A stretch of 64,000 nucleotides of DNA, from NCBI RefSeq assembly GCF_046483325.1, contig NZ_JAWODL010000031.1, positions 495 through 64,494 on the forward strand, given 5' to 3'. Under the pieces are notes generated by a model. The model did no database searches, was not told where the DNA came from, and saw only the letters and a program-made list of their open reading frames with translations. The translations under genes were made by a program, and so were the position numbers. The DNA comes from Natronomonas sp. Lineage in GTDB: Archaea; Halobacteriota; Halobacteria; Halobacteriales; Haloarculaceae. This document shows, piece by piece, positions 27,519-52,508 of this stretch (positions are counted from its first letter, which is position 1; each line of letters starts with the position of its first letter).

Positions 27519-27602
27519 GTAATCCTGTTATTAATATTTATATGTGATTTCGGCACTGTTCGCATATATGATGAATTAATATCATTAGAAGTGGGTTCCA
27601 CT

Positions 27603-27894
27603 GGTACCGCCCAGTTTAGGACCTTGTCGGCTGGCGTTCGTCCGTCGAGCGATTGATACGGTCTGCAGTGATTGCAGGAATGCGCAAGCTGTTCAATAGA
27701 TCCGCGTGTGCTTGACCACTCATCCACGGATTACGGAAGCAATCAACTCCTATGTTGCGTGTGGAACCACTCTTCGACCAGTTCGGCCCGATTACGTCGG
27801 GCCGATCGTCCCATCCTAATCGATTGAACGATGTCTGATAGTCGGAGCCACCAACGAACTGCTCGCTTCTCAGTTGGATTAACTAAACAGTGCC
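27603..27894 (-). mobile_element. Internally deleted IS6-family element (MITE-like) with 8-bp target-site duplication
   Basis: Ends GGCACTGTTTAG (27894 inward) and GGTACCGCCCAGTTTAG (27603); GTTCCACT at 27595-27602 and 27895-27902; relic peptide CNHCRPYQSLDGRTPADKV matches the IS6 transposase C-terminus. Confidence 0.8.
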
Positions 27895-28200
27895 GTTCCA
27901 CTACGTACGAACCGCCTGATCACTCCGAAATGAACCGATGGTCTCCGATCTGTTTGCTTTACCCGCTATCGCTCACGTCTGAAGTGTCCTGTACGTGTTC
28001 GGTTAGTTTCTCGTTCTTCCCCCCGGGATGTAGGTAGTGTACTGACCTCATCCGATAAATATAATAAAATTGTTACTTATAAGTTAATATACTTTCACTT
28101 ATATTTATTTACTCGTACCAAAATATATACTAAAGATTTCGGGGAGGGAACTCTCCGGCGTAATTGTTTTATGTATCGATAGCGCTTGTCTCGAAAACGC

Positions 28201-29007
28201 ATGAAACGCTTAGCTGGAAAGACCGCCGTAGTCACCGGGTCGAGCACGGGACTCGGACAGGGGATCGCGGAGCGATTCGCCGAAGAGGGAGCGAACGTCG
28301 TCACGAACGCACGGTCTACGGAACGGGCAGCGGCCACTGCGGAGGCGATCCGTGACTCCGGTGGTGAGTCGATCGGCGTGGGTGCGGATGTAACCCGAAA
28401 AGCGGACGTGATCGAACTCATCGAGACGGCCGTCGAGACGTACGGTTCGATCGACATAATGGTAAACAACGCCGGCACCACGGTCGAAAAGCCGCTCATC
28501 GAGCAGACACCAGCGGAGTGGCGCTCCGTCATCGAGACGAATCTCACGGGGACGTTTTTCGGCTGTCAGGTCGCTGGCGAACACATGCTCGACACCGACG
28601 ACGACTGCCAGATAATCAATATGAGCAGCATCTACGGTAGCGGTGGCGTGCAAGGCCGTGCACCGTACAACGCGTCGAAAGCCGGTATCGAGAACCTCAC
28701 TCGAAACGTCGCCGTCGAACTCGCCGATGGCAGCGTGCAGGTGAACGCGCTCGCCCCCGGCTACATCAGAACAAGATTGGCGGAAGCGCCGTGGGGGGAA
28801 TCGATCGAGGACCACCCTGAGTGGCCCTACTACGAGTACGCGGACGAACACATCGAAAACAGGACCCCACTCGGTAGGTTCGGCACGCACGAGGCGGTCA
28901 ACAACTGTGCGGCCTTTCTGGCCGCGGGTGAGCACTACATGACTGGCGAAGTTTTAACGCTCGACGGTGGCTGGATCGCGTTCGGCTGGGGGAGCAAGAG
29001 CCGGTAG
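28201..29007 (+). CDS. SDR-family oxidoreductase (FabG-like)
   Basis: TGSSTGLG, NNAG, SS, YNASK, NALAPG. Confidence 0.9.
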   Translation: MKRLAGKTAVVTGSSTGLGQGIAERFAEEGANVVTNARSTERAAATAEAIRDSGGESIGVGADVTRKADVIELIETAVETYGSIDIMVNNAGTTVEKPLIEQTPAEWRSVIETNLTGTFFGCQVAGEHMLDTDDDCQIINMSSIYGSGGVQGRAPYNASKAGIENLTRNVAVELADGSVQVNALAPGYIRTRLAEAPWGESIEDHPEWPYYEYADEHIENRTPLGRFGTHEAVNNCAAFLAAGEHYMTGEVLTLDGGWIAFGWGSKSR

Positions 29008-29017
29008 GGGTCCGCGA

Positions 29018-29857
29018 TCAGGAGCGATCGATCGAACCGAACCGACCGTCGATGTCGACGTCGAACCAGTACACCGTATCGTCACCCCACGCGGTCTGCT
29101 CGTCGATTTCGAACTGTTCTTCGAGTGCGTCGACGTCGGTCGCCTCGACGAGAAACGCACACGGTAACAGCGCGTCGTGGCGGTCGATCCGCTCTGCCAG
29201 CCACGAATCATCTTCGAGCGGTTCGGCGATCGTCGCGGCCGTCCCCCCGATCGAGGCGACCCGCGCACCGAACGCCTCCTCGCGTCGGATCTCGGCTTCG
29301 GCTCCGTCGTAGAACTCCTCGAACGCTTCGACCGTCTCGTCGAACCGATCGGTCCCGATCACCACGTCGGTCAACCCCATGATCCCCGTCGTCTTCGGAT
29401 CCGTGGTGATATCGACCCGCCACTCAAGCGGGGTGTGATCCATCTCCAACATCGGGAGCGGCGTTCCCTGTGGTCGCCCGCCGACGATCGTCAGCTCCCA
29501 CTCGACGCTCTTCCCGTCGGGCCGGTCCCTGGAAAACTTCGTCGGTCCCTCGATATCTATCCCCTCCGCGGCGAGTTCTTCGCTGCGCGCGGCGATGTCG
29601 TCGACGGTGATCGACCACGCGGTCGCGCCCGCGTCGGAATCGATCTGCTCGTTCCACCACGGGGCGGTTCCGTTCGGATCGTTCTTGGAGATGAGTTCGA
29701 TGTACGATCGATTACCGAATCCGATGAGATGCATGTGGGTGATGCCGTTCGAGTGCGTGCCGCCGTAGGCGGTCTCGAACCCGGCGGCTTCGAACGATTC
29801 TTGCAGCACGTCCAGATCCCGTCCAGCGAAAACGACATGATCGATGGGTCTTTTCAT
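29018..29857 (-). CDS. VOC/glyoxalase-like domain protein
   Basis: IDHVV, GGTHSNGITH, SYIELI, GRSVEW-like turn. Confidence 0.78.
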   Translation of the reverse strand: MKRPIDHVVFAGRDLDVLQESFEAAGFETAYGGTHSNGITHMHLIGFGNRSYIELISKNDPNGTAPWWNEQIDSDAGATAWSITVDDIAARSEELAAEGIDIEGPTKFSRDRPDGKSVEWELTIVGGRPQGTPLPMLEMDHTPLEWRVDITTDPKTTGIMGLTDVVIGTDRFDETVEAFEEFYDGAEAEIRREEAFGARVASIGGTAATIAEPLEDDSWLAERIDRHDALLPCAFLVEATDVDALEEQFEIDEQTAWGDDTVYWFDVDIDGRFGSIDRS

Positions 29858-29974
29858 GTGGCTACCTGTCGTTTGGCGGGTTCTGGCAAAAACGTATCCC
29901 CCATCGAGCGTCGCGGTCTCGCTCACGCCACCCGTCGGAACGCCTATTTATGTGTGCGGTGCACATCCAACGTA

Positions 29975-31612
29975 ATGACAGGTGAGAGTCCAGCCACGGG
30001 AAGCGATTACATTCTGGAGGCTCTCGAAGCTGAAGGAACGTCGACCCTCTTTGGCCTCATCGGAGAGGGGAACGCCCACCTTCTCGATCGGGTCAACGAC
30101 CACGATATCGAGTTCGCCTACGCGCGCCACGAACAGGTCGCCGTCACGATGGCTGACGCGTACGCCCGGACGACCGGCTCGGTCGGTGTCTGTACGCTGA
30201 CCCACGGACCAGGTGTCACGAACGGTGCGACCGGGATCGCAGCCGCGGACCGCGACAACGTTCCGCTCATGATCATCGTCGGAGACACCGGGATAGAGGG
30301 CCGGGAGACGTCACTCCAGTATCTCGACCACCAATCTTTTACCCGTCCGATATCAGTTTACCAGACGCGGATCGAGTCGATCGAAACTGCACCCGAGACG
30401 ATCAGACGCGCGTTCGGAAAGGCACGAACACAACACGGTCCCGCGATCGTGGAAATCCCTTCGGACGTCCAGACGGCCGACGCCCCCGAGGCGACCTACC
30501 GTCCCAAACCGGTCCTGTCACAGCGAACCTCGCCGGACCCGTCCGTTGTGGTCGAGGCCGTCGAACTACTCGACAATGCCGAATCGCCAGTCATTTTGGC
30601 CGGTGGCGGCGCGATGGCGTCCCAGGCGGCCGACGCGCTCTCCTCGCTTGCCGAACGGCTCGGTGCCCCGATCGCGGTTACGTACTTCGGGAAGGGTCTC
30701 TTCGATGCGGATGCACCGCTGTATTCGGGGATCGCGGGGACGTTCATGTCGCCCGCGAATGACGAACTGCTTTGGGACGCCGACGTCGTCGTCACCGCCG
30801 GGGCACAGCTGTCCGGCAAGGTGACCCGATACGGTGATCTGTACGCCGACGCCGACGTGATCCAGATAGACATCGATCCCGACGCGATCGCACGCTATCG
30901 GTCCCCGTCGGTGTCACTTCTGGGCGACGCGGCCGCCACTGTCGACGCGTTGACCGAGCGGATCGCCCCGGTCCCCGACCGGACCGAACGGGTAAAAGGG
31001 ATCGTCGAACGGGCCGAGAACGGCTTCGAATTCGAACCCTCGTCGCCCGACGGTGTGCTCGACCCCCGTGAGGCGACCCGTGAGGTCGCCGCCCGCATCC
31101 CCGACGATTCGATCGTCACGATCGACTCCGGTAACAACACCGGCTTCCCGGCAGTGTTTCACCCGATGGGCGCCGACGGACGGATGCTGGTAAACGGGAA
31201 CTTTGGAACGATGGGCTACGCGCTCCCGGCTGCTTTGGGTGCACAGGTCGCCGCCCCGGACCGAACCGTCGTCTGTTATGCGGGTGACGGGTCATTATTA
31301 CAGGTCGTCCAGGACATCGAAACCGCCTCACGTCTCGGACTTCCGATCATCGTGATCGTCCTGAACGACGAAAGCTACGGGATCATTCGACATCGCCAGC
31401 AGCTTGAGTACGGCCGTCAGACAGCTGCCGACTACGAAAGCCCGGATTTTGCAACTGTCGCGCGCGGACTTGGCGCTCGTGCCGAGACCGTCCGCTCGCT
31501 CGACGGATTTGATGCGATCGACGGACACCTCCGGTCTGCGTCATCGAAGCCACTGGTACTCGACGTTCGAACCGATCCCGACGTTTCCCGCCCCGGATTC
31601 CCGCCGTACTGA
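29975..31612 (+). CDS. ThDP-dependent enzyme (acetolactate synthase-like superfamily)
   Basis: ARHEQ, THGPG.TN, GTMGYALPAALG, GDGS...LND ThDP motif. Confidence 0.88.
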   Translation: MTGESPATGSDYILEALEAEGTSTLFGLIGEGNAHLLDRVNDHDIEFAYARHEQVAVTMADAYARTTGSVGVCTLTHGPGVTNGATGIAAADRDNVPLMIIVGDTGIEGRETSLQYLDHQSFTRPISVYQTRIESIETAPETIRRAFGKARTQHGPAIVEIPSDVQTADAPEATYRPKPVLSQRTSPDPSVVVEAVELLDNAESPVILAGGGAMASQAADALSSLAERLGAPIAVTYFGKGLFDADAPLYSGIAGTFMSPANDELLWDADVVVTAGAQLSGKVTRYGDLYADADVIQIDIDPDAIARYRSPSVSLLGDAAATVDALTERIAPVPDRTERVKGIVERAENGFEFEPSSPDGVLDPREATREVAARIPDDSIVTIDSGNNTGFPAVFHPMGADGRMLVNGNFGTMGYALPAALGAQVAAPDRTVVCYAGDGSLLQVVQDIETASRLGLPIIVIVLNDESYGIIRHRQQLEYGRQTAADYESPDFATVARGLGARAETVRSLDGFDAIDGHLRSASSKPLVLDVRTDPDVSRPGFPPY

Positions 31613-31741: not shown

Positions 31742-32617
31742 ATGGATATACTGCTCACCGGTGCCAACGGCACCGTCGGCGAGGCGATCCTCTCGGGGAT
31801 CGGTGACCGACCGGAGTTCACGTTCGCCCGTCTCGACGTCGAAGACCACCCGGAGCGCGAGACCGTCGTCGCGGACATCACCGACTACGACGACATCCGA
31901 CCGCATTTCGAAGACAAAGACGCGGTGATCCACCTCGCGGCGCTGGTCGATCTCAGCGCGTCGTGGGACGAGATTCTCCGGGCGAACGTAATCGGCACGT
32001 ACAACGTCCTCGAAGCGGCCGCAGACGCCGGAGTCGAACGGTTCGTCTTCGCGTCGTCGATCCACACGGTCGGGATGTACGAACTCGACTTTGCCCCCGA
32101 GATCTACGACCCCGCTTACGATCTCGAGATCGACCACGAAACGCCCGTCCGACCCGATTCGTTCTACGGACTGTCGAAGGTGTTCGGCGAGGCGCTCGGT
32201 CGCCTCTACGTCGAAAGCCACGAGAGCCCACTGGGATCGGTCCACCCGGCGTTCGGGACGAACACGCGCGAGTATCCCAACCGGTTTTACTCGCTTCGGA
32301 TCAAAAGCGTCCGCGACGCCGAACACGATCATCCGTACGGCCTCGCCGAGGAGGGCGTCGAGGAGGGGCTGTGGGAACGGGACAGCAAGGATTACGAGTA
32401 CATGGCCGATCGACTGAAGGCAACGTGGCTCTCCCACCGCGATCTCAACCAGTTGATCGAGGCGTGTCTCACCGACGAAACCGTCGAATTCGACGTTTTC
32501 TGGGGCGTCAGCGGTAACGACGCCCGGTGGGTCGACCTCGATCACAACCGCGACATTCTCGATTACGAGCCACAGGACAACGGTGCGACGTGGACCGGGC
32601 CACCGTCGGACGAGTAA
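31742..32617 (+). CDS. NAD-dependent epimerase/dehydratase (extended SDR)
   Basis: LLTGANGTVG, IHLAA, ASS, YGLSK. Confidence 0.85.
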   Translation: MDILLTGANGTVGEAILSGIGDRPEFTFARLDVEDHPERETVVADITDYDDIRPHFEDKDAVIHLAALVDLSASWDEILRANVIGTYNVLEAAADAGVERFVFASSIHTVGMYELDFAPEIYDPAYDLEIDHETPVRPDSFYGLSKVFGEALGRLYVESHESPLGSVHPAFGTNTREYPNRFYSLRIKSVRDAEHDHPYGLAEEGVEEGLWERDSKDYEYMADRLKATWLSHRDLNQLIEACLTDETVEFDVFWGVSGNDARWVDLDHNRDILDYEPQDNGATWTGPPSDE

Positions 32618-32726: not shown

Positions 32727-34478
32727 ATGGTCGACACCGGTGAGCTCGAGATCTTTAGACACTCGTTGAAAAGCATCGTGGAGGAAATGGGTGTAACGTT
32801 ACAGCGGACCGCGTACTCGACGAACATCAAGATACGGCGCGATCATACGTGCGCGCTGTTCGATGCGGACCTCCGCCATATCGCCCAACACGATATCGCC
32901 CCTCAACACATCGGTTCGCTCGTTTCTGTCGTCCCGAAGAACGTCCCCGACTGGGAGGACAATCTCGACCCGGGCGACGGAATCCTGATCAACGATCCTG
33001 ACAAGGGGGCCGTCCACCTACCCGATGTGATGCTCATCTCGCCGCTGTTTTATCACGACGAGATCGTTGGATACGCTGCGAACTCCGCCCACCACGTCGA
33101 TATCGGCGGTGGGACCCCCGGTGGAATCCCGAACGACAGCACCGAACTGTACGCCGAGGGGCTCATCATTCCGGGCGTGCGTGCGGTCCGTGACTGGGAG
33201 TACGACGACGACGTGCTCTCCCTCGTGCTTCGGAACGTCCGGAGTCCCCAGATGCGTCGGGGTGACTACCAGGCACAACTTGGTGCCAACCGAATCGGCG
33301 AGGAGCGATTCGGCGATCTGTACGACTCCTATGGACACGCGGGGGTCAAAACGTATCTCGACGAACTCCTTGAGTACACGGAGCGGCGGGTTCGGGCGGC
33401 GATATCGGACCTTCCTGACGGCCACTACGCCGCAGAAGATCACATGGACGGCGACGGGATCGTCGACGAGCCCGTCCGGTTACGACTCGCGCTCACCGTC
33501 GACGGCGACGAGATGACGATCGACTTCACGGGAACGGCGCCCGAGAACGTCGGCCCGCTGAACTGCACTCCTGCGATGGCGTTCGCCGGGACGATGTCTG
33601 TCATCATGGCGTTCATCGGCACAGATCTCCCGAAAAACGACGGCTTCTACCGCCCCTTCGAGATAATCACGCCGGAGGGGACGATGGTGAACCCGGGGGA
33701 GAACGCACCCGTCGCCGGCGGCTGGGAGATCCCGATGCGCGCGGGCGACCTGGTGACGAAGGCGCTCGCGGATGCCGTCCCCGAACGAACTATCGGCGCG
33801 ACGAAGGGGATGGTGTGTAACGTCGCATACGGCGGGACCGATCCGCGTGACGACGGTGAGTACGTCTACTACGAGACGGTCGCCGGCGGGTACGGCGGGC
33901 GGGCGACGAAGGACGGAATGGACGGCGTCCAGACGCACTTTCAAAACACCGCTAACAGCCCGATCGAAGAGCTGGAATCGGAAATTCCACTCTACGTCCG
34001 TCGCTACGAGTTGATCGCTGATTCGGAGGGTGCCGGCCGACAGCGCGGTGGTCTCGGTATCCGGCGAGACCTCGAATTCTACGACCACAGCGCTTCGTTT
34101 TCGCTTCTGACGGATCGAACACGATCGAGACCGTGGGGCGTGTTCGGCGGACGGAGCGCACAGCCTTCGAAATTCGTTCGAAACCCCGATACGGGCGAGG
34201 AGACAGAACTCGGCTCGAAGTCGACGACGAAACTCGACCCTGGCGACGTGGTGAGCATTCGAACTCCGGGTGGGGGCGGCTACGGCGATCCGATAGAACG
34301 CGACCCCGATGCGGTCCTCGACGACGTTCTCGACGGCAAAGTATCGACCGAGCGGGCAAAGCAAGCGTACTCGGTCATCCTCTCCGATGACGGTGAAACG
34401 GTCGACTGCGACGCCACGAACGCCCACCGCGAGGAGATTCGTTCGGAGGCCGCAGCCGACGGCGAGGTGTCACGATGA
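32727..34478 (+). CDS. hyuB: Hydantoinase B/oxoprolinase family subunit
   Basis: TAYSTNIK, HHVDIGG, YETVAGGYG, TPGGGGYGDP. Confidence 0.9.
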   Translation: MVDTGELEIFRHSLKSIVEEMGVTLQRTAYSTNIKIRRDHTCALFDADLRHIAQHDIAPQHIGSLVSVVPKNVPDWEDNLDPGDGILINDPDKGAVHLPDVMLISPLFYHDEIVGYAANSAHHVDIGGGTPGGIPNDSTELYAEGLIIPGVRAVRDWEYDDDVLSLVLRNVRSPQMRRGDYQAQLGANRIGEERFGDLYDSYGHAGVKTYLDELLEYTERRVRAAISDLPDGHYAAEDHMDGDGIVDEPVRLRLALTVDGDEMTIDFTGTAPENVGPLNCTPAMAFAGTMSVIMAFIGTDLPKNDGFYRPFEIITPEGTMVNPGENAPVAGGWEIPMRAGDLVTKALADAVPERTIGATKGMVCNVAYGGTDPRDDGEYVYYETVAGGYGGRATKDGMDGVQTHFQNTANSPIEELESEIPLYVRRYELIADSEGAGRQRGGLGIRRDLEFYDHSASFSLLTDRTRSRPWGVFGGRSAQPSKFVRNPDTGEETELGSKSTTKLDPGDVVSIRTPGGGGYGDPIERDPDAVLDDVLDGKVSTERAKQAYSVILSDDGETVDCDATNAHREEIRSEAAADGEVSR

Positions 34479-36499
34479 CCGCCCGAATCGGTGTCGATAC
34501 GGGCGGGACGTTCACCGACGTGGTGCTGTACGACACCGATTCCGAGGACGTTCACGTGACGAAGACCCCCTCGACGCCACCGAATTTCGACGAAGGGGTG
34601 TTGCGGGGGATCGACAAAATCCTCGCACAGACTGGGACGGAGCCGGAAGCGGTGTCATTTTTGAGCCACGGTACGACCGTCGGCACGAACGCGGTGTTGG
34701 AAGGCGAGATGCCGACGCTCGGGTTGATAACAAACGAGGGGCTGCGGGACGTCCTCGAGATCGGCGATCAGACTCGCCCGGAGATGTACGATCTGCAGGC
34801 GGAGAAACCGCCGGTGTTGATCCCACGGCGGCGGCGCCGAGAGGTTCTTGGTCGTCTCGACGCGACCGGTTCCGTCGTCGACCCGCTCGACGAAGCGCAG
34901 GTTCGCGAGGTCGTCACGTCGTTGGCCGACGGGGACGTCGACTCTATCGTCGTCTCGATGCTCTTTTCGCACCTCAACGATACCCACGAGCGACGAATCG
35001 GCGAGATCATCGAGGAGACGACGTCCGTCCCGTACACGCTTTCCTCGGCGGTGTATCCCGAACGCCGCGAGTACGATCGGACCGTGACGACGGTCCTCAA
35101 CGAGGCCGTCAAAATCACGATTCAGGACTACTTTGCCCGTCTCGACGACGGCATCGCCGCACGGAACCTCGAGGTCCCGCTCAACATCATGCACTCCGGC
35201 GGCGGTATCTTCGGGACTCAACAGGCGATCGACTTCGCGATTCGGACGGTACTTTCGGGTCCCGCCGCTGGCGCCGTCGCGACCCGCGACGTGTGTCGGA
35301 CCGAATCGCTTGACAACGTCATCGGACTCGATATGGGTGGGACGAGCACCGACGTCAGTATCGTCGCCGACGGGGACATCATCCGCTCGACAGACGGAGA
35401 AATCAATGACCTCCCGATAAACACCCCGATGATCGATATTCACACCGTCGGTGCCGGTGGCGGAAGCATCGTCTGGATCGACGAGGGGGGTGGCCTCCGG
35501 GTCGGTCCGCAGAGTTCGGGCGCCGATCCGGGGCCGATTTGCTACGACCGCGGCGGCACCGATCCGACCGTCACCGACGCGAACCTCGTTTTGGGGCGGA
35601 TCGATCCGGACGCATTCCTCGATGGGGACATGTCGACGGCCGCCGACCGAGCACGCGAGCGCTTCGGACGCGTGATCGCCGATCCGCTGGACGAATCGAT
35701 CGAGGATGCCGCGCTGAGCGTTCTCAAAGTGGCGAACGCGAAGATGAGTCGGCAGATCCGGAAGGTCACCGTTGAACGGGGTCGGGACCCAGCGGAGTTT
35801 TCGCTGGTCGCCTTCGGCGGGGCCGGGCCGCTGCAGGCGGCCGCAGTCGGTCGGCAGATGGATATGGAATCGGTCGTGCTCCCGCAGAGTCCCGGCGTGT
35901 TCTCCGCCAGGGGACTCTTGCTCGCCGACGTCCGACTGGACGAATCCCAGGCGTATCGCGGCGAGTCGATCGATGTGGAACGTATTCGGTCTCAGTTCGA
36001 TGCGATGGAGACGACGCTTCGCAGTCGGTTCGACGCGCAGGACGTCGCTCCTGACGAGATCGAGATCAGCTACGCCATAGACGCCCGATACGCCGGCCAA
36101 TCGTACGAACAGACCATCCCGTTCGCCGGTGAGTCGGTCACTGATACCACCGTCTCGACGACCGTCGCCCGATTCCACGACCGTCACGAGCAGCTGTACG
36201 GCTACGCAATGCGCAACGAACCGATCGAAGTCGTCACGCTTCGCGAGACCGGAACAGCCGAAACGCCAACTCTCGCCGCGTCATCCGGCAGATCCGCTGT
36301 CGCCGCACACGACGAGCGAAACGTGTACTTCGATGACAGGGGATTCCGATCGACGCCGATCTACGGCCGATCCGTCCTCGAGGGCGGACAACGACTCAAA
36401 GGTCCAGCCCTCCTCGAGGAACCCGGTTGTACGTCGCTGCTCCCGCCGGGAACGACCGCCGAAATCTCCGCAGACAGAAACGTGATCATCGACCTCTGA
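34475..36499 (+). CDS. hyuA: Hydantoinase A/oxoprolinase family subunit
   Basis: DTGGTFTD, HGTTVGTNA, SGPAAG, DMGGTSTD, GAGGGSI, FGGAGPL. Confidence 0.92.
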   Translation: MTARIGVDTGGTFTDVVLYDTDSEDVHVTKTPSTPPNFDEGVLRGIDKILAQTGTEPEAVSFLSHGTTVGTNAVLEGEMPTLGLITNEGLRDVLEIGDQTRPEMYDLQAEKPPVLIPRRRRREVLGRLDATGSVVDPLDEAQVREVVTSLADGDVDSIVVSMLFSHLNDTHERRIGEIIEETTSVPYTLSSAVYPERREYDRTVTTVLNEAVKITIQDYFARLDDGIAARNLEVPLNIMHSGGGIFGTQQAIDFAIRTVLSGPAAGAVATRDVCRTESLDNVIGLDMGGTSTDVSIVADGDIIRSTDGEINDLPINTPMIDIHTVGAGGGSIVWIDEGGGLRVGPQSSGADPGPICYDRGGTDPTVTDANLVLGRIDPDAFLDGDMSTAADRARERFGRVIADPLDESIEDAALSVLKVANAKMSRQIRKVTVERGRDPAEFSLVAFGGAGPLQAAAVGRQMDMESVVLPQSPGVFSARGLLLADVRLDESQAYRGESIDVERIRSQFDAMETTLRSRFDAQDVAPDEIEISYAIDARYAGQSYEQTIPFAGESVTDTTVSTTVARFHDRHEQLYGYAMRNEPIEVVTLRETGTAETPTLAASSGRSAVAAHDERNVYFDDRGFRSTPIYGRSVLEGGQRLKGPALLEEPGCTSLLPPGTTAEISADRNVIIDL

Positions 36500-38204: not shown

Positions 38205-38231
38205 GGCCGGGTTAGCCGTGGGGCGGCGCGT

Positions 38232-42174: not shown

Positions 42175-42288
42175 TGCGATCTGGACCACGTCGGTTCCCT
42201 AGATGATGCTCCCGTCGATCGCGATCCGGACACCGCTGCTGACCGAAATAAACAGCATCGGGACGGCTTCCTGGTCTGTCAGTCACTG
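42175..42288 (-). pseudogene. Diverged fragment of the binding-protein gene (copy of ~44838-44951)
   Basis: First 26 nt identical (tgcgatctggaccacgtcggttccct), then scattered mismatches; contains an in-frame stop. Confidence 0.85.
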
Positions 42289-43991: not shown

Positions 43992-45326
43992 TTAAATATC
44001 GTCTCCCGAAATCGTCTCCTCTGCGATCTGATACTCGTGGTCCTCTACGGAGTACACTTCGTACACGCCGACCGGATCGCCGTTCTCGTCGAGCTGTCCC
44101 GGGCCGCCCGTGCCGATGAAGTCAACGTCGTCCGAGCTGCCATCTTGGAGGATCTCCTTTGCCGCTTCGAACGTACTAATCTGTTCTCCCGGCGGTCTCG
44201 TGACCTCGCGGATGTGTTCGGCAATGCCCGGCCCCGTGAACTCGTCGGCGGCCTCGATCGCCATCGCCACCCAGTGCACCGCGTCGTACACGTACGCCGA
44301 GTAGACGGTCGGCGATTCGCCGTACTCGTCTTCGAAGCGGGCTTCGAACTCGTCGTACACGTCGGAATCCGAGGGCGGCCCCTCACGAACGCCCTTGAGG
44401 TTCTCTTGGCTTCCCGGCTCCGTGTTCTCGAGAATCGTGTCGGCGATGACGCTCTCTGCACCGTAGTAGTCGACCTCCTCGTGGTACCCCTGATCGTAGG
44501 CGTTGTTGAACATGACCGTCGCCTCGTCGGCGTACGTCACGAACACCCACGCAGTCGCATCCGTCGCTGCCATGTCCGAAAGATCCGGCGCGTAGCTCGC
44601 CTCACCTGGGTCGTGTGAGCCGTTGTACGCGACCGTTCCATCGTACTCATTCTCGAAGATATCCTGGATCCCGTTGCCGAGTGCCTCGCCGTAATCGTTG
44701 TTGATCCACGTGATCGCGATGGTATCGTGACCGTCGTTGGAGATCATGTCCGCCATGACGACACTCTTTCCGGCACCGCTCGGGACTGGCCGGAGCAAGT
44801 CGGGGTAATCGGACACGGTCGCCCCCGAACTCGACTGTGCGATCTGGACCACGTCGGTTCCCTGGATGACGCTCTCGTGGATCGCGATCGAGACACCACT
44901 GCTGACGGCGCCGAACAGCATCGGAACGCCTTCTTGATTTATGAGCCGCTGTGCGGCGTTGACCCCGGCTTCGTTCGAACTCTCGCTGTCTTCGATGATG
45001 ACGTCCAACTCCAGGTTGTCCGGCCCGATACCGATCGCATTGATGTCCTCGAGCGCGAGTTCGAGCCCACGAAGGTTGTACTGTCCGTATGGTGCGAGCG
45101 TCCCGGTTTCCGGCGTGATCATGCCGATCGTGTAGGCGTCGAGATCACTGCCGCCGCCGTTTCCGCCATCGCCGTTCCCGTTCCCGTCGCCGTTGCCACC
45201 GCCGTTTCCGCCACCGTTGCCGCCGTTGCCATTACCGTTACCCCCCTCGATGCAACCCGCCAGAGAGCCGATAACGGAGACGCCAGTTCCAGCCAGTACT
45301 GCTCTACGTGATATGTTACTATCCAT
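43992..45326 (-). CDS. Liv-type ABC substrate-binding lipoprotein (Tat signal)
   Basis: ISRRAVL, LAGC lipobox, GN linker, GAVSSGV, AYVYDA; true start is well inside the listed ORF. Confidence 0.9.
   Translation of the reverse strand: MDSNISRRAVLAGTGVSVIGSLAGCIEGGNGNGNGGNGGGNGGGNGDGNGNGDGGNGGGSDLDAYTIGMITPETGTLAPYGQYNLRGLELALEDINAIGIGPDNLELDVIIEDSESSNEAGVNAAQRLINQEGVPMLFGAVSSGVSIAIHESVIQGTDVVQIAQSSSGATVSDYPDLLRPVPSGAGKSVVMADMISNDGHDTIAITWINNDYGEALGNGIQDIFENEYDGTVAYNGSHDPGEASYAPDLSDMAATDATAWVFVTYADEATVMFNNAYDQGYHEEVDYYGAESVIADTILENTEPGSQENLKGVREGPPSDSDVYDEFEARFEDEYGESPTVYSAYVYDAVHWVAMAIEAADEFTGPGIAEHIREVTRPPGEQISTFEAAKEILQDGSSDDVDFIGTGGPGQLDENGDPVGVYEVYSVEDHEYQIAEETISGDDI
45150..45245 (-). repeat. 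Gly-Asn(-Asp) linker tandem repeat
   Basis: GNGNGNGGNGGGNGGGNGDGNGNGDGGNGGG after the lipobox. Confidence 0.8.
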
Positions 45327-45553: not shown

Positions 45554-46231
45554 TCAGCGGGCGCGTTCGGCAGCCTCCCCGATCGCTTCCGATAGCGTCG
45601 GGTGGATGTGAACAGTCGCGTACACGTCCTCGAGCGTCGCTCCCATTTCGACCGCCAACCCGACCTCTGTTATCAACTCCGACGCCTCCCGGCCAACGAT
45701 CTGCCCGCCCAGGATCACCCTCGCTCGACCGTCCGCGACGATCCGAACGAACCCAGTGTCGGCGGCGGCGGTCAGGGCTCGTTCGTTCGATCAAAAGGGA
45801 ACTTGTCCGACTATCGGCTCGACCCCAGCTTCGCGTGCTTCGGCTTCCGTCCGCCCGACTGTCGCGATTTCAGGGTCGGGAAAGACCGCGGCGGGAATCG
45901 CGTACCGATCGAGCGCCGCCGCTTCTCCCGCGACCCCCTCAGCGGCGACGATACCTTCGATGCTCGCGACGTGCGCCAACATCGGTTCGCCGGTCACGCC
46001 GCCCGCAGCGAAGATGTGTTTCTGACTAGTTCGGGCGCGGTCATTCGTGGGGATGAACCCCCATTCGTCGGCCTCGATCTCTGCGTTTTCGATCGAGAGT
46101 GTATCGAAACCCGGCTCTCGACCGAGGGCGACTAACACTCGGTCGGCGGCGTAGGTCGAGCGATCGCCGGACTCCGTCTCGGTAATTAACATCCCGTCGT
46201 CACTTCCATACTCGAACTCCTTGCTCGTCAT
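45554..46231 (-). pseudogene. lpdA: Dihydrolipoamide dehydrogenase remnant (5' half deleted, frameshift near 45791)
   Basis: VLVALGR, IFAAGGV.GEPMLAHVA, GF.RIVAD, HIHPTLSEA in two frames; no FAD-binding N-terminus or redox CxxxxC. Confidence 0.85.
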
Positions 46232-46237
46232 GTGGCC

Positions 46238-47251
46238 TTAGAACTCGAGTGTCTCTCGGATCCCGTGCTCGATTCGGGCCGCACTCGGCAGATAGTAGTC
46301 CTCGAGCGCGTACAGCGGGAACGGTGTGTCGTATCCGGTGACGCGCCCGATTGGCGCTTCCTGGTAGAGCATGGCTTCGCGCTGAATCGTGGACGTCAGT
46401 TCGGCCGCCATCCCCGCAGTTTCGGGTGCCTCGTGGACGACGACGCCGCGCCCAGTTCGCTTGAACGCCTCGACGATCGTCTCTTCGTCGAGGGGATAAA
46501 TGGACCGCACGTCGACGACGTGACAGTCGATGCCGTCTTTAGCGAGCTTCTCCACGGCTTCCATCGTCGGTCGAGTCATCGCCCCCCAGGTAAACACGGC
46601 GACGTCCGTCCCCTCGCGAAGCACCTTCGCTTCGCCGATCGGGATCGTGTATCGCTCATCCGGCACCTCGTGTTTGAACGAGCGGTAGATGAGCTTCGGC
46701 TCGAGAAACATCACCGGATCCGGGTCCTCGATCGCGCTGGCGAGGAGTCCCTTCGCGTCGTACGGCGTCGACGGCACGACCACCTTGAGCCCCGGCTGGT
46801 GTGCAAAGAACGCCTCCGTCGATTCGGAGTGGTGTTCGGGCGCGCGGATACCACCGCCGTACGGGACTCGAACCGTCAGCGGGCAGGTAAAGCGTCCCCG
46901 AGACCGCGTTCGAAACCGCGCCGCGTGGTTTACCAACTGGTCGAACGCGGGATAGACGAACCCCATAAACTGGAGCTCAGGTACGGGGCGGAGCCCCCGG
47001 ACCGCCATCCCGATCGACGTGCCGATGATGGCCGACTCCGCAAGCGGTGTGTCCATGACCCGATCCGGACCGAACTCGTCCAACAACCCCTCTGTTGCCC
47101 GGAACACACCGTCGTTGTCACCGACGTCTTCGCCGAGGACGACGACCCGCTCGTCGCGTTTCATCTCCGTGTCCAGTCCCTCCCGAACCGCCTGTACCAG
47201 CGTCAACGTCTGCGTTTCGACGGCCGCCGGATCTTGATTCGTTGCTCCCAT
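46238..47251 (-). CDS. pdhB: 2-oxoacid dehydrogenase E1 beta subunit
   Basis: GEDVG..DGVFRATEGL, DTPLAE, EHHSES, VHEAP, RVTGYDTP. Confidence 0.92.
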   Translation of the reverse strand: MGATNQDPAAVETQTLTLVQAVREGLDTEMKRDERVVVLGEDVGDNDGVFRATEGLLDEFGPDRVMDTPLAESAIIGTSIGMAVRGLRPVPELQFMGFVYPAFDQLVNHAARFRTRSRGRFTCPLTVRVPYGGGIRAPEHHSESTEAFFAHQPGLKVVVPSTPYDAKGLLASAIEDPDPVMFLEPKLIYRSFKHEVPDERYTIPIGEAKVLREGTDVAVFTWGAMTRPTMEAVEKLAKDGIDCHVVDVRSIYPLDEETIVEAFKRTGRGVVVHEAPETAGMAAELTSTIQREAMLYQEAPIGRVTGYDTPFPLYALEDYYLPSAARIEHGIRETLEF

Positions 47252-47254
47252 TGG

Positions 47255-48361
47255 TCAATCCCGTAGGAACGCCTCGTCACCGTAGCGTTCGTGCAGTTTA
47301 CGGAACTCGTCGCGCTGTGCTTGGATTCGGTCCGGAAGCTCCTCGAAGACGTACTCGAAGATGTCGTCGGGGTCCGGTTCGTTCGCTTCGGCGATCTCAA
47401 CCGCCGCTTCGATCTCCTCGGTGTTCGCCTCGTCGATCGCGCCGATCTGCTCGTCGCTCAGAATCCCTCGATCCCGCAGGAACGTCTCCAAGCGCAAGAT
47501 CGGATCGCGCTTCCGCCACGGCTCCGTCTCGGCCTCTTCGCGGTAGTTGGACGGATCGTCGCTCGTGTTGTGCGCCCCCGAGCGATACAACAGCGCCTCG
47601 ACGAGTGTCGGACGGAGCTGGTCAGGGCCGGGGGTGCGCGCCTTCCCGAGCGCCCGTTTGGTCACCTCGTAGACGGCGAGTGGGTCCATCCCGTCGACTC
47701 GGACCCCCTCGAAACCGTATCCCGCCGCACGCGACGCGAGAGTCGACGCTGCTGTCTGCTTTTCGATCGGCGTGGAGATCGCCCACTGGTTGTTCAGACA
47801 AAAGAACACGTTCGGCGTATCGAACACGCCCGCGAAGTTGAGCCCCTCGTGAAAGTCACCTTCGCTCGTCGCGCCGTCGCCGAAATAACAGATGACGGCG
47901 CTGTCGTCGTTATCATCGAGTTTCGACACCATTCCCGCGCCGGTGGCGTGTGGGATCTGATCGCCGATCGTGATGCAGATCGGGAACACGTTTGTACCCT
48001 CCGGGACGACGCTTCCCTCCTCGTAGCCCATGTAGTATTGCAAGATGTGTTCGAGTCCGAGTCCGTGGGTGATCGTCGCGCCGTGATCTCGGTAGTACGG
48101 GACGATCCAATCGTCGTCATCTAAGGCGAAAGCGCTTCCAACGAGCGCTCCCTCGTGGGCCTGCATCGTCGAGTACGTCCCCATACGACCCTGGCGTTGG
48201 AGGCTCACGGCTCGCTCGTCGAACTGTCGACAGAGCCGCATCTGGCTGTACATGTCGACGAATACGTCGTCTTCGAGATCCGGCGGCGATTCGCCTTCCA
48301 GGACTCTTCCCTCGGTGTCAAGTATCTGTTCGTCCGCTCTGAAATCTGGTTCGATACTCAT
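47255..48361 (-). CDS. pdhA: 2-oxoacid dehydrogenase E1 alpha subunit
   Basis: QRQGRMG, GDGATSEGDF..NN, GAHNTSDDP. Confidence 0.92.
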   Translation of the reverse strand: MSIEPDFRADEQILDTEGRVLEGESPPDLEDDVFVDMYSQMRLCRQFDERAVSLQRQGRMGTYSTMQAHEGALVGSAFALDDDDWIVPYYRDHGATITHGLGLEHILQYYMGYEEGSVVPEGTNVFPICITIGDQIPHATGAGMVSKLDDNDDSAVICYFGDGATSEGDFHEGLNFAGVFDTPNVFFCLNNQWAISTPIEKQTAASTLASRAAGYGFEGVRVDGMDPLAVYEVTKRALGKARTPGPDQLRPTLVEALLYRSGAHNTSDDPSNYREEAETEPWRKRDPILRLETFLRDRGILSDEQIGAIDEANTEEIEAAVEIAEANEPDPDDIFEYVFEELPDRIQAQRDEFRKLHERYGDEAFLRD

Positions 48362-48461: not shown

Positions 48462-49556
48462 TCACCACTGTGGCTTCCGCGTCGTGTGCACCTTTTCGCG
48501 CATCGCCCTCATCGCCTCAATCCGCTGGCTGGCGATCCCGTTGGCGATCGCGTAGGTCGGCTCGTCCGTCTCCGCCGCTCGCTGTCCGATCGTCATCATC
48601 CGGTCGTAGATGCCGTCGATCATCGCGCGGGCTCTGTGATGTTTGTAGCCGCCCCTGCGGAGGAGATCCGTGTCGTCGATCGTCCGGCCAGAGTTGGCGA
48701 GGTAGTCGGGTGCGTACAGGATGTCCTCCTCGTGGAGCATCGTTCCGTGGCGCTCCTCGTCGTCGAGTTGATTGTTCGCCGCTCCGCAGACGATGTCGCA
48801 CTGTAGCCGCGGGATCGTCTCGTCGTTCAACACGAACCCGAGCGCCGAGGGCGCGAACACGTCGCAGTCGACGTCAAAGACGTCGTCGGGGTCGACCGAG
48901 CCGACGCCATACTCGCTTTCGAGGTAATCGACTTGCGCCTCATTGATGTCTGAGACCGTCACCTGCGCCCCTCTCTCGTGGAGGTACTGAACGATGCTCG
49001 TCCCCATCTCGCCGACGCCCTGCACGACGATGTGCAGATCGGAGAGCTCCCGATCGTCGTACGTGAGGTCACAACAGGCTTCCATCGCCTTGATCACGCC
49101 GAGTCCGCCGCCGTGATATCCATCGGGGTGATCGAACTGCTCGGGTAGTCCGATGATGTAGTCGGTCTCGTCGCCGATCCAGCGCATCGCTTCCTCGTTC
49201 GTCCCGACATCCGCTCCCGTGACGAACCGACCGCCGAAACTGTCGACCATGCGCCCGTACGCGCGATATAGCTCCTCGCTGCGCTGGTCGGGATCGTCGA
49301 CCCAGATCACGGCCTTCCCGCCGCCCATGTTGATCCCGGAGATCGCGTATTTGTAGGTCATCGCACGCGAGAGCCGAAGCGCGTCGACGATGGCTTCCTC
49401 TTCGGATTCGAAGGCATATCGTCGGGTTCCGCCCGCGGCCGGACCGAGCGTCGTGTCGTGAATCGCGATGAATCCGCGAAGCCCGACTTCGTCGTCCCGG
49501 AACGCCTTGAATTCGTTGTGGCCATGCTCGGCTAGTAACGCTTGCAGATTTACCAT
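48462..49556 (-). CDS. Leu/Phe/Val dehydrogenase
   Basis: IAIHDTTLGPA.GG, MTYK, GGGKAVI, GADVG, QGVGEMG, GAANNQL, PDYLANSG. Confidence 0.9.
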   Translation of the reverse strand: MVNLQALLAEHGHNEFKAFRDDEVGLRGFIAIHDTTLGPAAGGTRRYAFESEEEAIVDALRLSRAMTYKYAISGINMGGGKAVIWVDDPDQRSEELYRAYGRMVDSFGGRFVTGADVGTNEEAMRWIGDETDYIIGLPEQFDHPDGYHGGGLGVIKAMEACCDLTYDDRELSDLHIVVQGVGEMGTSIVQYLHERGAQVTVSDINEAQVDYLESEYGVGSVDPDDVFDVDCDVFAPSALGFVLNDETIPRLQCDIVCGAANNQLDDEERHGTMLHEEDILYAPDYLANSGRTIDDTDLLRRGGYKHHRARAMIDGIYDRMMTIGQRAAETDEPTYAIANGIASQRIEAMRAMREKVHTTRKPQW

Positions 49557-49734
49557 GTCGTCGATTACCATACAGACCAGGTGTTGTTATGTGTTTTGGA
49601 ACGTGTCCCCTGGCGCTTCACCTTTCGACTCGTCGCCACTCCCCGAAGCACGGTCGCGGCGATACACTGTGTCCGTCGAACTCGAACTCCACTCGCCGAT
49701 ACTATTTTGTACGTGGAAGCGGCAGATCCGTCGT

Positions 49735-50043: not shown

Positions 50044-50055
50044 CCACCTCGCAGA

Positions 50056-50874
50056 TTAGCGACCCTTGCTCCCCCAGCCGAAGGCCAGCCAGCCGCCGTC
50101 GGCATTGAGAATCTCGCCGGTCGTGTAGTGGTTCCCCTCGGCGAGAAACAACGCGACGTTCTGCATCTCGTCGAGCGTTCCGAATCGATCCAGGGGGACG
50201 CGGTGTTCGATGTGCGTATCGTCGTAGCCGTAGTACGGCCAGTTGTCCTCGTCGAGCATTTCGTCGTCGCCGCTTTCGCGCGTCTGCTCGTCCAGTTGGG
50301 TTTTGATAAACCCGGGTGCGAGTGCGTTGACCTGGATGTCGTGTTCAGCGAGTTCGACCGCGAGGTTCCGGGTGAGGTTGTTGACACCGCCCTTCGAGGC
50401 GTTATAGGGGGCTCGGCCCTGGATCCCGATCTTTCCAAATATACTGGAGATGTTGATGATCTGACCACCCGTTCCCTGGTCGATCATCCGTGTTCCGGCC
50501 GCTTGAGCGCCGTAAAATACGCCTGAGAGGTTGGTGTTAATGACGCTTTGCCAGTCCTCCGGATCCATCTCCATCGCGGGTTCGATCACGGAGATCCCTG
50601 CATTGTTGACCATGATGTCTATCGAACCGTACTCTTCGATCGCCGATTCGGCGAGTGCGTGGGCATCGTCGGGATTCGAGATGTCAGCCTCGACGGCGGT
50701 CGCGGTTCCACCGTTGGCGGTTATTTCATCGGCGGTTTCTTGTGCGCGTTCGAGCGCACGCGAGTTCGTGATGACGTTCGCACCCTCCTCGGCGAACTTG
50801 GTTGCGATCGCTGCGCCGATACCGCTACTTGAGCCGGTTACAACCGCTGTTTCGTCGGCTAATCTTTCGGACAT
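50056..50874 (-). CDS. SDR-family oxidoreductase (paralog of 28201-29007)
   Basis: TGSSSGIG, NNAG, YNASK, NALAPG. Confidence 0.9.
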   Translation of the reverse strand: MSERLADETAVVTGSSSGIGAAIATKFAEEGANVITNSRALERAQETADEITANGGTATAVEADISNPDDAHALAESAIEEYGSIDIMVNNAGISVIEPAMEMDPEDWQSVINTNLSGVFYGAQAAGTRMIDQGTGGQIINISSIFGKIGIQGRAPYNASKGGVNNLTRNLAVELAEHDIQVNALAPGFIKTQLDEQTRESGDDEMLDEDNWPYYGYDDTHIEHRVPLDRFGTLDEMQNVALFLAEGNHYTTGEILNADGGWLAFGWGSKGR

Positions 50875-50992
50875 ACACGCTGATCATCTGAGGGATAGAT
50901 TAAATCAGTTTTGCCAACCATCACTCATTTCGACTCGCCTCATCGGTAAGGTGTTCGGTCTCGCTGTATCGCTGATCGATCAGCAGTAATTG

Positions 50993-51005
50993 CACCATAT
51001 GGGAT
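50993..51005. promoter_or_regulatory. CACCATATGGGAT motif upstream of the iclR TATA-like TTTATG
   Basis: Identical 13-mer recurs at 51853-51865; palindromic core CCATATGG. Confidence 0.4.
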
Positions 51006-51038
51006 AGACATTTATGATGCTACATCAATTGGGTCGGT

Positions 51039-51797
51039 ATGGCAAACCAAACCCGGATCAAGTCCGCCGAAACCACGCTACGAATCATCGAAACGATCAA
51101 AACGCTAGACGGGGCGGGTGTTGCCGATATCGCTGCCGAACTCGGTCGCCCCACAAGTACGATTCACAACTACCTCCAGACGCTTGAAGCGAACGAATAT
51201 CTGATCAAGGATGACAAAACGTATCGAGTGAGTCTCCGCTTTTTAGGGCTCGGAAAGCACATCGAAGATCGCCTCCAGATCCGCAAAATCGCCATGCCGG
51301 AGATCGACGAACTCGCCGATCGAACCGGTGAACTCGCGGGCTTGCTTGTCGAAGAGCACAACAAAGGCGTGTACGTGTATCTCCACAGCGGAGACAAAGC
51401 AGTGTATTTGGATGCACGGCCCGGAAAGCGGACGTACCTTCATCAGACCGGACTCGGCAAGGCGATCCTCTCGGAACTCAGTGAAGCGGAGGTCGATACG
51501 ATAATCGACGAACACGGCCTCCCGAGAGCGACTCCTAACACGATCACTGACCGAGACCGGTTGATGACGGAACTCGCCGAAACCCGTGAGCGTGGGTATG
51601 CCATCGACCGTGGTGAGCGGGTCTCAGGTGTTAGGTGCATCGCCGTTCCGATCAATCCATCAGGTGAGAAGCCAGTCGGTGCGATCAGCGTCTCCGGTCC
51701 GAAAAGCCGCGTGAAAGGCGACTTTTTCGAACAGCAGTTGCCTGAACTGGTCACAGAAGCCGCTAACGTCATCGAGATAAACTACCGCTTCGCTTGA
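51039..51797 (+). CDS. IclR-family transcriptional regulator
   Basis: N-terminal HTH (GVADIAAEL..STIHNYL), TGLGKAIL, RERGYAID.GE..GV.CIAVP. Confidence 0.92.
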   Translation: MANQTRIKSAETTLRIIETIKTLDGAGVADIAAELGRPTSTIHNYLQTLEANEYLIKDDKTYRVSLRFLGLGKHIEDRLQIRKIAMPEIDELADRTGELAGLLVEEHNKGVYVYLHSGDKAVYLDARPGKRTYLHQTGLGKAILSELSEAEVDTIIDEHGLPRATPNTITDRDRLMTELAETRERGYAIDRGERVSGVRCIAVPINPSGEKPVGAISVSGPKSRVKGDFFEQQLPELVTEAANVIEINYRFA

Positions 51798-52508
51798 GGA
51801 GTGCTCCGTCGATACCCGTCATTTGATACCGCGCCACCACTGTCGAGTTCTCCACCATATGGGATCCGTGACTTTTAAGAACCGATCCGCCTGATATAAT
51901 AGAAAATTTGCACTATCTGGGACAACAACGCACTATCTCGTATACACATGTGATGGACGTTAGAGTTCGGTTCTCATCTTGAGCGATGACGCGGCTTCCA
52001 GCGTATCTCAAACAGCATTATGCCTGTTAGTGAGACATCTATCGTATTAGCCAGGATGTGGTGGAAAATACTTCTAATTTATTATTTTTACAGCTTATTA
52101 TTGTACATACTGCCATACTAAATGTTATTTAGACACAGTTATTTGTACAAAACATGATATCATCAGTATTTTACTCAATTCAAAAAATCAACGGTGATGC
52201 CAGTATTAACATACAACAATACGAAAGCAATAACTTACAGATAGTTGTCTATTTTTCTATTATATAACTTATATTGTATTTTTAGAAGATACTTTATTTG
52301 GGCCCGAACCGTATTACAACCAGTTATATAAATTATGGATGGCTTTTCCACGAATTCAACATATATATTTTTCTTTTTATATTATACTTTAACGTCACAT
52401 ATCTCATATATATAATTGTTCTCCCCCGGTAATAGACACTATTAGATCGTATGTTATCCAACGGATAACTATCGGAGTTATACTTGTCGTTCACTAACAC
52501 ACGACCGC

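Follow-up and report, generated by a model that had tools for sequence, protein, structure and literature searches.

The window analysed here, a 64,000-nucleotide (64-kb) stretch from a contig of Natronomonas sp., carries a block of about 24.9 kb in which genes for a HyuB/HyuA-type hydrolase, two thiamine diphosphate (ThDP) enzymes, an amino-acid dehydrogenase (aaDH), the E1 alpha and E1 beta subunits (E1a and E1b) of a 2-oxo-acid dehydrogenase, an ABC importer and an IclR-family regulator lie together (Table 1). The proteins encoded in the window are strongly acidic. An earlier, sequence-only reading of this DNA had placed a catabolic island at 27520-52500, and its boundaries were close to those of a true insertion. 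All gene families that it named were found at their places by Pfam and NCBIfam searches. Its gene list needed some correction: the VOC gene is on the minus strand and not on the plus strand, the proposed epimerase is a dehydrogenase of the uronate-dehydrogenase/Azf type, and two features had been passed over, a fused E2'-E3 pseudogene and the remnant of an IS6-type transposase. We found that the block is a horizontally acquired, mobile genomic island in a haloarchaeal chromosome and that its gene set is under purifying selection and functionally maintained.

Table 1. Features of the island, in order of position in the window.
Feature	Positions	Strand	Evidence or remark
Inserted island, about 24.9 kb	27519-52433	.	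GTAAT at 27519-27523 and 52429-52433
C-terminal remnant (last ~40 codons) of a putative IS6-type transposase	27600-27727	-	Left island edge
SDR1, classical short-chain dehydrogenase	28186-29007	+	adh_short E 4e-53
VOC/Glyoxalase_3 protein, 279 aa	29018-29857	-	PF13468 E 2e-28
ThDP1, acetolactate-synthase-like	29975-31612	+	Three TPP domains
Uronate-dehydrogenase/Azf-like NAD-dependent dehydrogenase	31742-32617	+	Azf model 188 bits, cut-off 400
HyuB, beta subunit of a predicted ATP-dependent hydantoinase/oxoprolinase/caprolactamase-type hydrolase	32727-34478	+	Hydantoinase_B E 2e-181
HyuA, alpha subunit	34475-36499	+	Hydant_A_N, Hydantoinase_A and Hydant_A_C domains
ThDP2, second acetolactate-synthase-like enzyme	36567-38204	+	TPP domains
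PPOX-class small protein, Rv1155-like, flavin/F420-binding	38232-38639	-	TIGR03618 89 bits, above cut-off 79
LivF, LivG, LivM and LivH (ATPases and permeases of a HAAT-family ABC importer)	38657-42109	-	NCBIfam Liv/Urt models
Relic of a second, diverged binding-protein gene, 115 nt	42175-42289	-	81% identical to 44838-44952
Orphan protein of predicted LDH/MDH fold, 378-398 aa	42289-43485	-	Inserted in the transporter operon of this strain only
Substrate-binding lipoprotein of the HAAT transporter	43992-45326	-	Peripla_BP_6 E 4e-36
E2'-E3 fusion pseudogene	45554-46231	-	In-frame stop 45791-45793; between the E1b and binding-protein genes
E1 beta, PDH/BCKDH-type 2-oxo-acid dehydrogenase	46238-47251	-	Transket_pyr and Transketolase_C domains
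E1 alpha, PDH/BCKDH-type 2-oxo-acid dehydrogenase	47255-48361	-	E1_dh domain
aaDH, Leu/Phe/Val/Trp-dehydrogenase family	48462-49571	-	ELFV domains
PpnP-family (DUF1255) cupin, 102 aa	49735-50043	+	Pfam Ppnp 97 bits
SDR2, short-chain dehydrogenase	50056-50874	-	adh_short E 3e-60
IclR-family regulator	51039-51797	+	HTH_IclR E 4e-10, IclR_C E 4e-40

The island is missing from the closest genome of the same genus (G008), in which the empty site is intact. The order pilus-type ATPase, orf132, fmdA and purU is contiguous there, and 70 nt lie between the stop codon of orf132 and the start of fmdA, whereas 24.9 kb separate these two genes in the window. The stretch from the ATPase (80% identical) to purU (95% identical) measures 2.2 kb in G008 and 27 kb in the window. 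In the alignment of the two sequences, homology runs through a small acidic open reading frame (27120-27518), breaks exactly at 27518 and restarts near 52430-52470, shortly before fmdA (52509). A 5-bp repeat, GTAAT, stands at both joints and may be taken as weak evidence of a target duplication. No other terminal repeat was found at the island ends, and a search of the genome and of related loci gave no further copy of the end sequences. The island is flanked by ordinary chromosomal genes (MatE, purU, a DHH-family RecJ-like gene, the pilus ATPase and membrane genes). The amidase gene fmdA was considered as a missing part of the island and was rejected, since it is native, stands at the empty site in G008 and is not conserved with the island.

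The genome (2.9 Mb in 56 contigs) falls among the Halobacteriales in a whole-genome search. It has a GC content of 62.9%, and the island, at 59.5%, falls in the lowest 2.5% of genome windows of equal size. Its tetranucleotide distance is in the top 9%. The departure from the host is modest, and together with the empty site it upholds the earlier claim of a discrete island. The GC figures previously given for the AT-rich spacers were exact (0.20, 0.25 and 0.283), and of the 47 60-nt windows with at most 30% GC in the 64 kb, 39 fall at one or the other end of the block; the spacers correspond to the ends of the island and to haloarchaeal promoter regions. No integrase was seen in the island, and tRNA and Rfam scans of the window gave zero matches, in agreement with what had been noted. 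The traces of mobility are the GTAAT repeat and the transposase stub only. The remnant peptide (...NHCRPYQSLDGRTPADKV) is 47% identical (E 8e-7) to a transposase-like fragment on contig C53 (29507-29854) that ends in ...YYNHQRPHQSLENQPPAE. Pfam did not match the stub because the piece is too short. We presume that it belongs to the IS6 family from its ...RP(H/Y)QSL(D/E)... ending.

The island also occurs in other genomes. Another species of the genus (G007) has it at a different site, and one of two Natronorubrum copies is on a megaplasmid. The G007 copy has the genes in the same order with 70-89% amino-acid identity and lacks the LDH-fold gene; its contig has a different left flank, and the G007 ATPase and purU are on other contigs. 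In Natronorubrum texcoconense the genes are 63-90% identical to those of the window and the order is ThDP1-dehydrogenase-HyuB-HyuA, IclR, SDR2, cupin, aaDH-E1a-E1b-E2-binding protein-LivHMGF-PPOX-SDR1, VOC. The same set is carried by the 631-kb plasmid unnamed1 of Natronorubrum sp. FCH18a. Compared with the Natronorubrum arrangement, one block of the window island is inverted and one is moved, and ThDP2 (genus-specific) and the LDH-fold gene (strain-specific) are added. Despite this rearrangement, 18 island genes were kept together in G007 and the two Natronorubrum genomes, contrary to the refuting condition (genes not co-conserved) that the sequence-only reading had set, and the ratio of nonsynonymous to synonymous substitution rates (dN/dS) was 0.07-0.25 for all shared genes against both G007 and Natronorubrum. 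The copy in its own genus and the Natronorubrum copies are about equally diverged from the window island, consistent with lateral spread. A full-length ThDP1 was not found by tblastn in the FCH18a plasmid copy, unlike in N. texcoconense, and thus the gene may be lost or disrupted there. In the same plasmid locus (L020, 6900-7400), an (AT)n run and AT-rich DNA lie upstream of the dehydrogenase gene.

HyuA and HyuB are full-length, lie side by side with a 4-nt overlap and cover their family profiles fully (E 2e-94 and 2e-181), and by these matches they are assigned to the ATP-dependent hydantoinase/oxoprolinase family. In the PDB, HyuB scored 329 bits against N-methylhydantoinase and 262 bits against caprolactamase. 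An identity as the caprolactamase CapAB was rejected: HyuA reached 512 bits with the alpha model and HyuB 320 bits with the beta model (NF050156/NF050157), under cut-offs of 1000 bits. The Pseudomonas sp. NS671 hyu cluster reportedly consists of HyuA/HyuB, the carbamoylase HyuC and the racemase HyuE. The island is similar to it in having a two-subunit ATP-dependent HyuA/HyuB, the product of which would be converted to an L-amino acid. It differs in having neither carbamoylase nor racemase and in having a uronate-dehydrogenase-like dehydrogenase, ThDP enzymes, aaDH and E1ab; an M20 amidohydrolase and an Amdase/racemase-family gene are found in two sister loci (L018 and L019) only. CapAB of Pseudomonas jessenii, 5-oxoprolinases and valerolactam hydrolases use ATP to open stable 5- to 7-membered lactams, giving amino acids (PMC8453981, PMC6061476, PMC11033972). 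HyuBA of the island is of the same enzyme family and has the same subunit sizes as CapAB, and it differs in its low scores and its archaeal host. Moreover, the caprolactam pathway goes on with an omega-aminotransferase, whereas the island has an alpha-amino-acid dehydrogenase and E1/ThDP enzymes. Haloarchaea have many HyuAB paralogues, and in the whole genome we counted 11 HyuB-like matches, on contigs C1, C15, C29, C31, C36, C37, C42 and C47, which looks like a large expansion of ATP-dependent hydantoinase/oxoprolinase-type enzymes for a 2.9-Mb genome.

The best solved structures for the dehydrogenase encoded next to HyuB are the uronate dehydrogenases 3RFT and 3AY3. Similar to uronate dehydrogenase (Udh) and the haloarchaeal glucose-6-phosphate dehydrogenase Azf, it belongs to the extended short-chain dehydrogenase (SDR) group that oxidises cyclic hemiacetals to lactones. 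It differs from them in its Azf score, less than half of the cut-off, and in being coupled to HyuBA, not to sugar-acid genes. Since this coupling is tight, the substrate might be a cyclic hemiaminal or a hydroxylated ring.

The two ThDP enzymes scored below every NCBIfam cut-off for acetolactate synthase, Xsc, AruI and related enzymes (the best score of ThDP1 was 337 bits against a cut-off of 538, and it is under all equivalog cut-offs), and their closest solved matches are BbmA and acetolactate synthases. ThDP1 is 79% identical in G007, 74% in N. texcoconense and 62% in G158, where it adjoins HyuBA. ThDP2 is 71% identical in G007 and is present only in the island version of this genus, with no orthologue in the Natronorubrum loci. 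The N. texcoconense locus (L017, 5826-6945) has a split ThDP enzyme of 177 and 194 aa, in divergent orientation, upstream of ThDP1. It resembles the sulfopyruvate/phosphonopyruvate-decarboxylase type and is possibly the counterpart of ThDP2.

On the opposite strand, aaDH is closest to solved leucine dehydrogenases (LeuDH; 6ACF, 303 bits) and retains the catalytic residues K68, K80, D115 and N262. Its pocket carries the changes L40A, A113G, E114A/G, G290R, V291T, N293D and V294D, which are invariant in seven orthologues, whereas ordinary haloarchaeal LeuDH paralogues (43-46% identity) keep L/S/L/V at the pocket positions. From the Bacillus sphaericus structure we take L40, A113, V291 and V294 to form the hydrophobic side-chain pocket of LeuDH. 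An assignment as leucine dehydrogenase (EC 1.4.1.9) was rejected on the A, G, T and D found at these positions together with R290 and D293, and the side chain of the substrate is probably longer and polar or charged. The E1 subunits are of the pyruvate dehydrogenase (PDH) or branched-chain 2-oxo-acid dehydrogenase (BCKDH) type (TIGR03181, 423 bits, above the cut-off of 411), and the closest solved structures of E1a are PDH E1a of G. stearothermophilus, then BCKDH. Both subunits are intact and strongly constrained (dN/dS 0.07-0.11).

An operon of LeuDH and BCKDH is known from Bacillus. Like bkd of Bacillus subtilis (LeuDH and BCKDH E1ab-E2-E3), the island has a LeuDH-family gene followed by E1a-E1b-E2(-E3) in one operon, and the Natronorubrum copy is complete through E2. 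It might be a branched-chain amino-acid (Leu/Ile/Val) utilisation island with Liv transporter, LeuDH and BCKDH, in which the other genes are unrelated; the best transporter matches are Liv-type models, aaDH is most similar to solved LeuDH and E1a resembles PDH/BCKDH E1. We regard this as quite improbable. The aaDH pocket is remodelled and thus branched-chain amino acids are unlikely substrates, the four hydrophobic positions being A, G, T and D with an Arg at 290. In addition, the substrate-binding protein is remote from Leu/Ile/Val binders (E 1e-15; PRK15404, 51 bits against a cut-off of 477) and E2 is deleted in the window genome. The differences from bkd are the polar or charged pocket, the deletion of E2/E3 and the presence of an ABC importer and a PPOX protein in the operon.

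A biosynthetic island is still less probable. In this alternative, a ScyB-like dehydrogenase and a ScyA/BbmA-like ThDP carboligase would make an acyloin product as in scytonemin synthesis. The aaDH does match the ScyB model (NF035922), both ThDP enzymes are nearest to BbmA and acetolactate synthases, and the SDRs could reduce an acyloin. However, the ScyB score of 313 bits is far under the cut-off of 600, and tryptophan dehydrogenase was rejected as an identity for aaDH on this score. Furthermore, ThDP1 and aaDH are nowhere adjacent, there are no ScyC-like or tailoring genes, and an importer with its binding protein, IclR, E1ab-E2 and HyuBA form a catabolic signature.

The sequence-only reading had amino-acid dehydrogenase and E1 consume amino and 2-oxo acids. 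The enzymes for this, aaDH and E1ab, are intact, but E2 and half of E3 are deleted in the window genome, and the island has no four-component E1a-E1b-E2-E3 operon. In the pseudogene, the first six E2 codons (MTSKEF, as in the intact Natronorubrum E2, MTSKEFTLPDVGEG...) run on in frame into the C-terminal half of E3 (positions 241-461 of dihydrolipoyl dehydrogenase; the match to the lipoamide-dehydrogenase model spans positions 241-376), which is interrupted by a stop and not by a frameshift. The deletion in G007 is cleaner, with no trace of E2/E3, and in Natronorubrum E2 is intact and there is no E3. Since the cognate E2/E3 are deleted, acyl transfer would go through E2/E3 encoded elsewhere, or E1 would work alone. 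Other E2 genes of the genome are on C37 (49% identity) and C53, and other E3 genes are on C32 (57%). Operons for 2-oxo-acid dehydrogenases of Haloferax volcanii offer a comparison, as cited in PMC8305020 (references 116-120), and E1-only operons are on record for Haloferax in references given there.

These losses raise the question of whether the island is a decaying remnant that no longer functions in the window genome. The E2/E3 pseudogene, a binding-protein relic, the transposase stub and an orphan promoter would fit such decay. However, the 18 shared genes are intact and remain within the dN/dS range given above against G007 and Natronorubrum, E1a and E1b included despite the loss of E2, and the genome has the other E2/E3 genes just named. 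We therefore consider decay very improbable.

With its pair of permeases, its pair of ATPases and the Peripla_BP_6 binding protein, the island has the parts of a HAAT importer. Every Liv/Urt score of LivFGMH is under its equivalog cut-off, and their orthologues in G007 and Natronorubrum are 75-87% identical. The binding protein is 80% identical in G007 and 67% in Natronorubrum. Inference of its ligand from solved structures failed, the homologues being remote. Its N-terminus (45149-45250, minus strand) has a twin-arginine-like signal and a lipobox (...RRAVLAG...SLAGC), followed by a Gly/Asn-rich linker that is coded by an imperfect 12-18-nt repeat.

The IclR regulator is 74% identical in Natronorubrum. 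A candidate operator, the 13-mer CACCATATGGGAT, stands beside a TATA-like box at the iclR promoter (50993-51005), and the Natronorubrum iclR promoter has the palindrome ATCCCACATCGTGGGAT at the same place. The 13-mer CACCATATGGGAT recurs at 51853-51865, again just before a TATA-like box; the AT-rich stretch past iclR in which it lies contains no gene, and this copy is possibly an orphan promoter/operator of a lost gene. A search for the operator-like motif ATCCCAYATNNTGG matched only at the iclR promoter, at the orphan copy (51853) and at a single site in L020 that is not conserved; the motif search speaks neither for nor against co-regulation.

To see how the parts of the island are distributed, we surveyed 400 Halobacteriales genomes for the HyuB group (at least 60% identity) and the aaDH group (at least 53-86% identity). 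The aaDH orthologue group was present in 10 genomes (~2.5%) and the HyuB group in 22 (~5%). The uronate-dehydrogenase-like gene is directly upstream of HyuB in 9 of 14 HyuB-group loci. Sister HyuBA loci (60-81% identity) are neighboured by class I/II aminotransferase, DAO oxidases, M20, creatininase and a PALP/PLP enzyme, and also by HpcH aldolase, aldehyde dehydrogenase, cupins, IclR genes, HAAT transporters and, once, ThDP1. In these loci, different deaminating and 2-oxo-acid-cleaving enzymes appear to hold the roles of the island aaDH and E1/ThDP enzymes. Such nitrogen-removing, 2-oxo-acid-cleaving contexts give indirect support to the idea that ring opening by HyuBA yields an amino acid for subsequent deamination and cleavage, and to this extent the earlier proposal that ring opening feeds deamination was borne out. 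In loci that have aaDH without HyuBA (G216, G336 and G177), one or two SDRs and a small cupin always adjoin aaDH, usually with E1a-E1b-E2, near genes for CoA-transferase, acyl-CoA synthetase and enoyl-CoA-hydratase-like proteins.

We propose that the island encodes a single pathway of import, NAD-dependent oxidation with ATP-dependent ring opening, oxidative deamination and ThDP-dependent decarboxylation, and we give this about an even chance. The HAAT importer would bring in a nitrogen-containing substrate. NAD-dependent oxidation and ATP-driven opening of a lactam-like or hydantoin-like ring would then produce, or use up, an unusual alpha-amino acid whose side chain is long and polar or charged. 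Its alpha-amino group would be released as ammonia by the remodelled aaDH, and the resulting 2-oxo acid would be decarboxylated by the ThDP enzymes (E1ab and/or ThDP1/2). The SDRs, the VOC protein and the cupin might work on hydroxy or oxo intermediates. In favour of one pathway we count that the catabolic set has one iclR gene, the promoter of which carries a conserved operator-like palindrome.

Several results weigh against this proposal. Both cores occur together in one of the 400 genomes (N. texcoconense), and ~0.55 would be expected if they were independent; HyuBA and aaDH/E1 are thus distributed independently and come together only in the island lineage. Both genomes of the genus have lost E2/E3. 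Pfam and NCBIfam searches found no carbamoylase, racemase or aminotransferase in the island, and no operator motif shared by the other transcription units was found in the window and the Natronorubrum loci. Finally, the order of the steps and the identity of the substrate are inferred. As for the earlier claim of one pathway, the co-conservation of the genes stood, but the cores did not prove to depend on each other across Halobacteriales.

The gene modules of which the island is built circulate among Halobacteriales, and the island may be a co-transferred mosaic of two or three independent catabolic units instead of one pathway, a serious contender that we nevertheless hold to be the less probable explanation. 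The units would be (a) amino-acid uptake, deamination and oxidative decarboxylation, like Bacillus bkd, (b) ThDP1-dehydrogenase-HyuBA for lactam or hydantoin opening and (c) accessory genes. Such a mosaic would agree with the SDR-cupin-aaDH-E1ab-E2 group that stands without HyuBA in the three genomes mentioned above, with dehydrogenase-HyuBA standing by itself in G395, G210, G213, G158 and G401, which lack the aaDH core, with the co-occurrence of the cores in genomes at no more than chance level, and with ThDP2 and the LDH-fold gene as lineage-specific additions. However, the 18-gene set outlived at least two rearrangements and a transfer between two families, all under purifying selection, and the island has a single regulator gene. 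Moreover, the Natronorubrum transporter is co-directional with aaDH-E1-E2 and transporters of the same type accompany HyuBA elsewhere, and thus the shared transporter type links the two modules.

In a bolder reading, the conserved trio of uronate-dehydrogenase/Azf-like dehydrogenase, HyuB and HyuA could be an undescribed haloarchaeal route from a cyclic imine or hemiaminal through a lactam to an amino acid, although we find this unlikely. A ThDP decarboxylase and the remodelled LeuDH-family enzyme, whose place is taken elsewhere by a DAO oxidase or an aminotransferase, would convert a basic or otherwise polar amino acid to an amino-aldehyde. After cyclisation, the uronate-dehydrogenase-like enzyme would oxidise the ring to a lactam, and HyuBA would open the lactam with ATP. 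If true, the island would hold the whole of a mobile pathway for a substrate class (lactams, cyclised diamino acids or the like) for which no archaeal catabolism is known, and would bring a new substrate specificity to the Leu/Phe/Val dehydrogenase family.

The enzyme families of the island are ordinary and their combination is undescribed. No described pathway with this gene set was found in the family libraries or the literature searched, as had been asserted before, and the literature searched held nothing relevant on the characterisation of haloarchaeal HyuAB/oxoprolinases, on BbmA or on this gene set. The island is a good lead for enzyme discovery and not a new kind of system. The leads are the widely conserved dehydrogenase-HyuBA core, the LeuDH-family enzyme with an altered pocket, and the dedicated binding protein with the IclR sensor; ATP-dependent lactamases and non-canonical amino-acid dehydrogenases are of biocatalytic value. 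The cultured carrier N. texcoconense and the natural pair with and without the island (the window genome and G008) make the function testable. The island also illustrates modular assembly, rearrangement, partial decay (the loss of E2/E3) and spread between haloarchaeal families.

Among the accessory genes, the cupin adjoins the aaDH gene in seven of seven orthologous loci. The earlier suggestion that it cleaves nucleosides was not supported: its score with the PpnP nucleoside phosphorylase model (NF007875) is 46 bits against an equivalog cut-off of 143. Nucleoside breakdown as the main function was rejected on this score and on the lack of any other nucleoside gene in the island. SDR1 and SDR2 are paralogues (~58% identical); SDR1 orthologues are 79% identical in G007 and 73% in Natronorubrum, and SDR2 orthologues 83-85%. 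The VOC protein is 77% identical in G007 and 67-69% in Natronorubrum, and its start was placed at M24 because of the alignment with the G007 orthologue. PPOX orthologues (63-69% identical) come after LivF in G007 and Natronorubrum.

The orphan gene between the binding-protein gene and livH is absent in G007 and Natronorubrum, where the binding-protein gene abuts livH directly. The relic of a second binding-protein gene lies between livH and the orphan gene, and its partner is inside the intact binding-protein gene. Since the relic is at the canonical position, the orphan gene and a spacer of ~500 nt were probably inserted there. The orphan protein has no sequence match in Pfam, NCBIfam or the PDB. 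Its AlphaFold model (pLDDT 93) matched malate and lactate dehydrogenases (MDH/LDH) with a Foldseek probability of 1.0, TM 0.5-0.68 and ~15% identity, and this predicts an LDH/MDH fold over both domains, as the sequence-only reading had recognised. Halobacterium sp. DL1, H. yunchengense and metagenomes have homologues with 51-74% identity, all labelled hypothetical. In more distant homologues the NADP-binding domain of saccharopine dehydrogenase (PF03435) is present, and there were weak profile matches; a saccharopine-dehydrogenase-like identity was considered, and structure comparison favoured the LDH/MDH fold.

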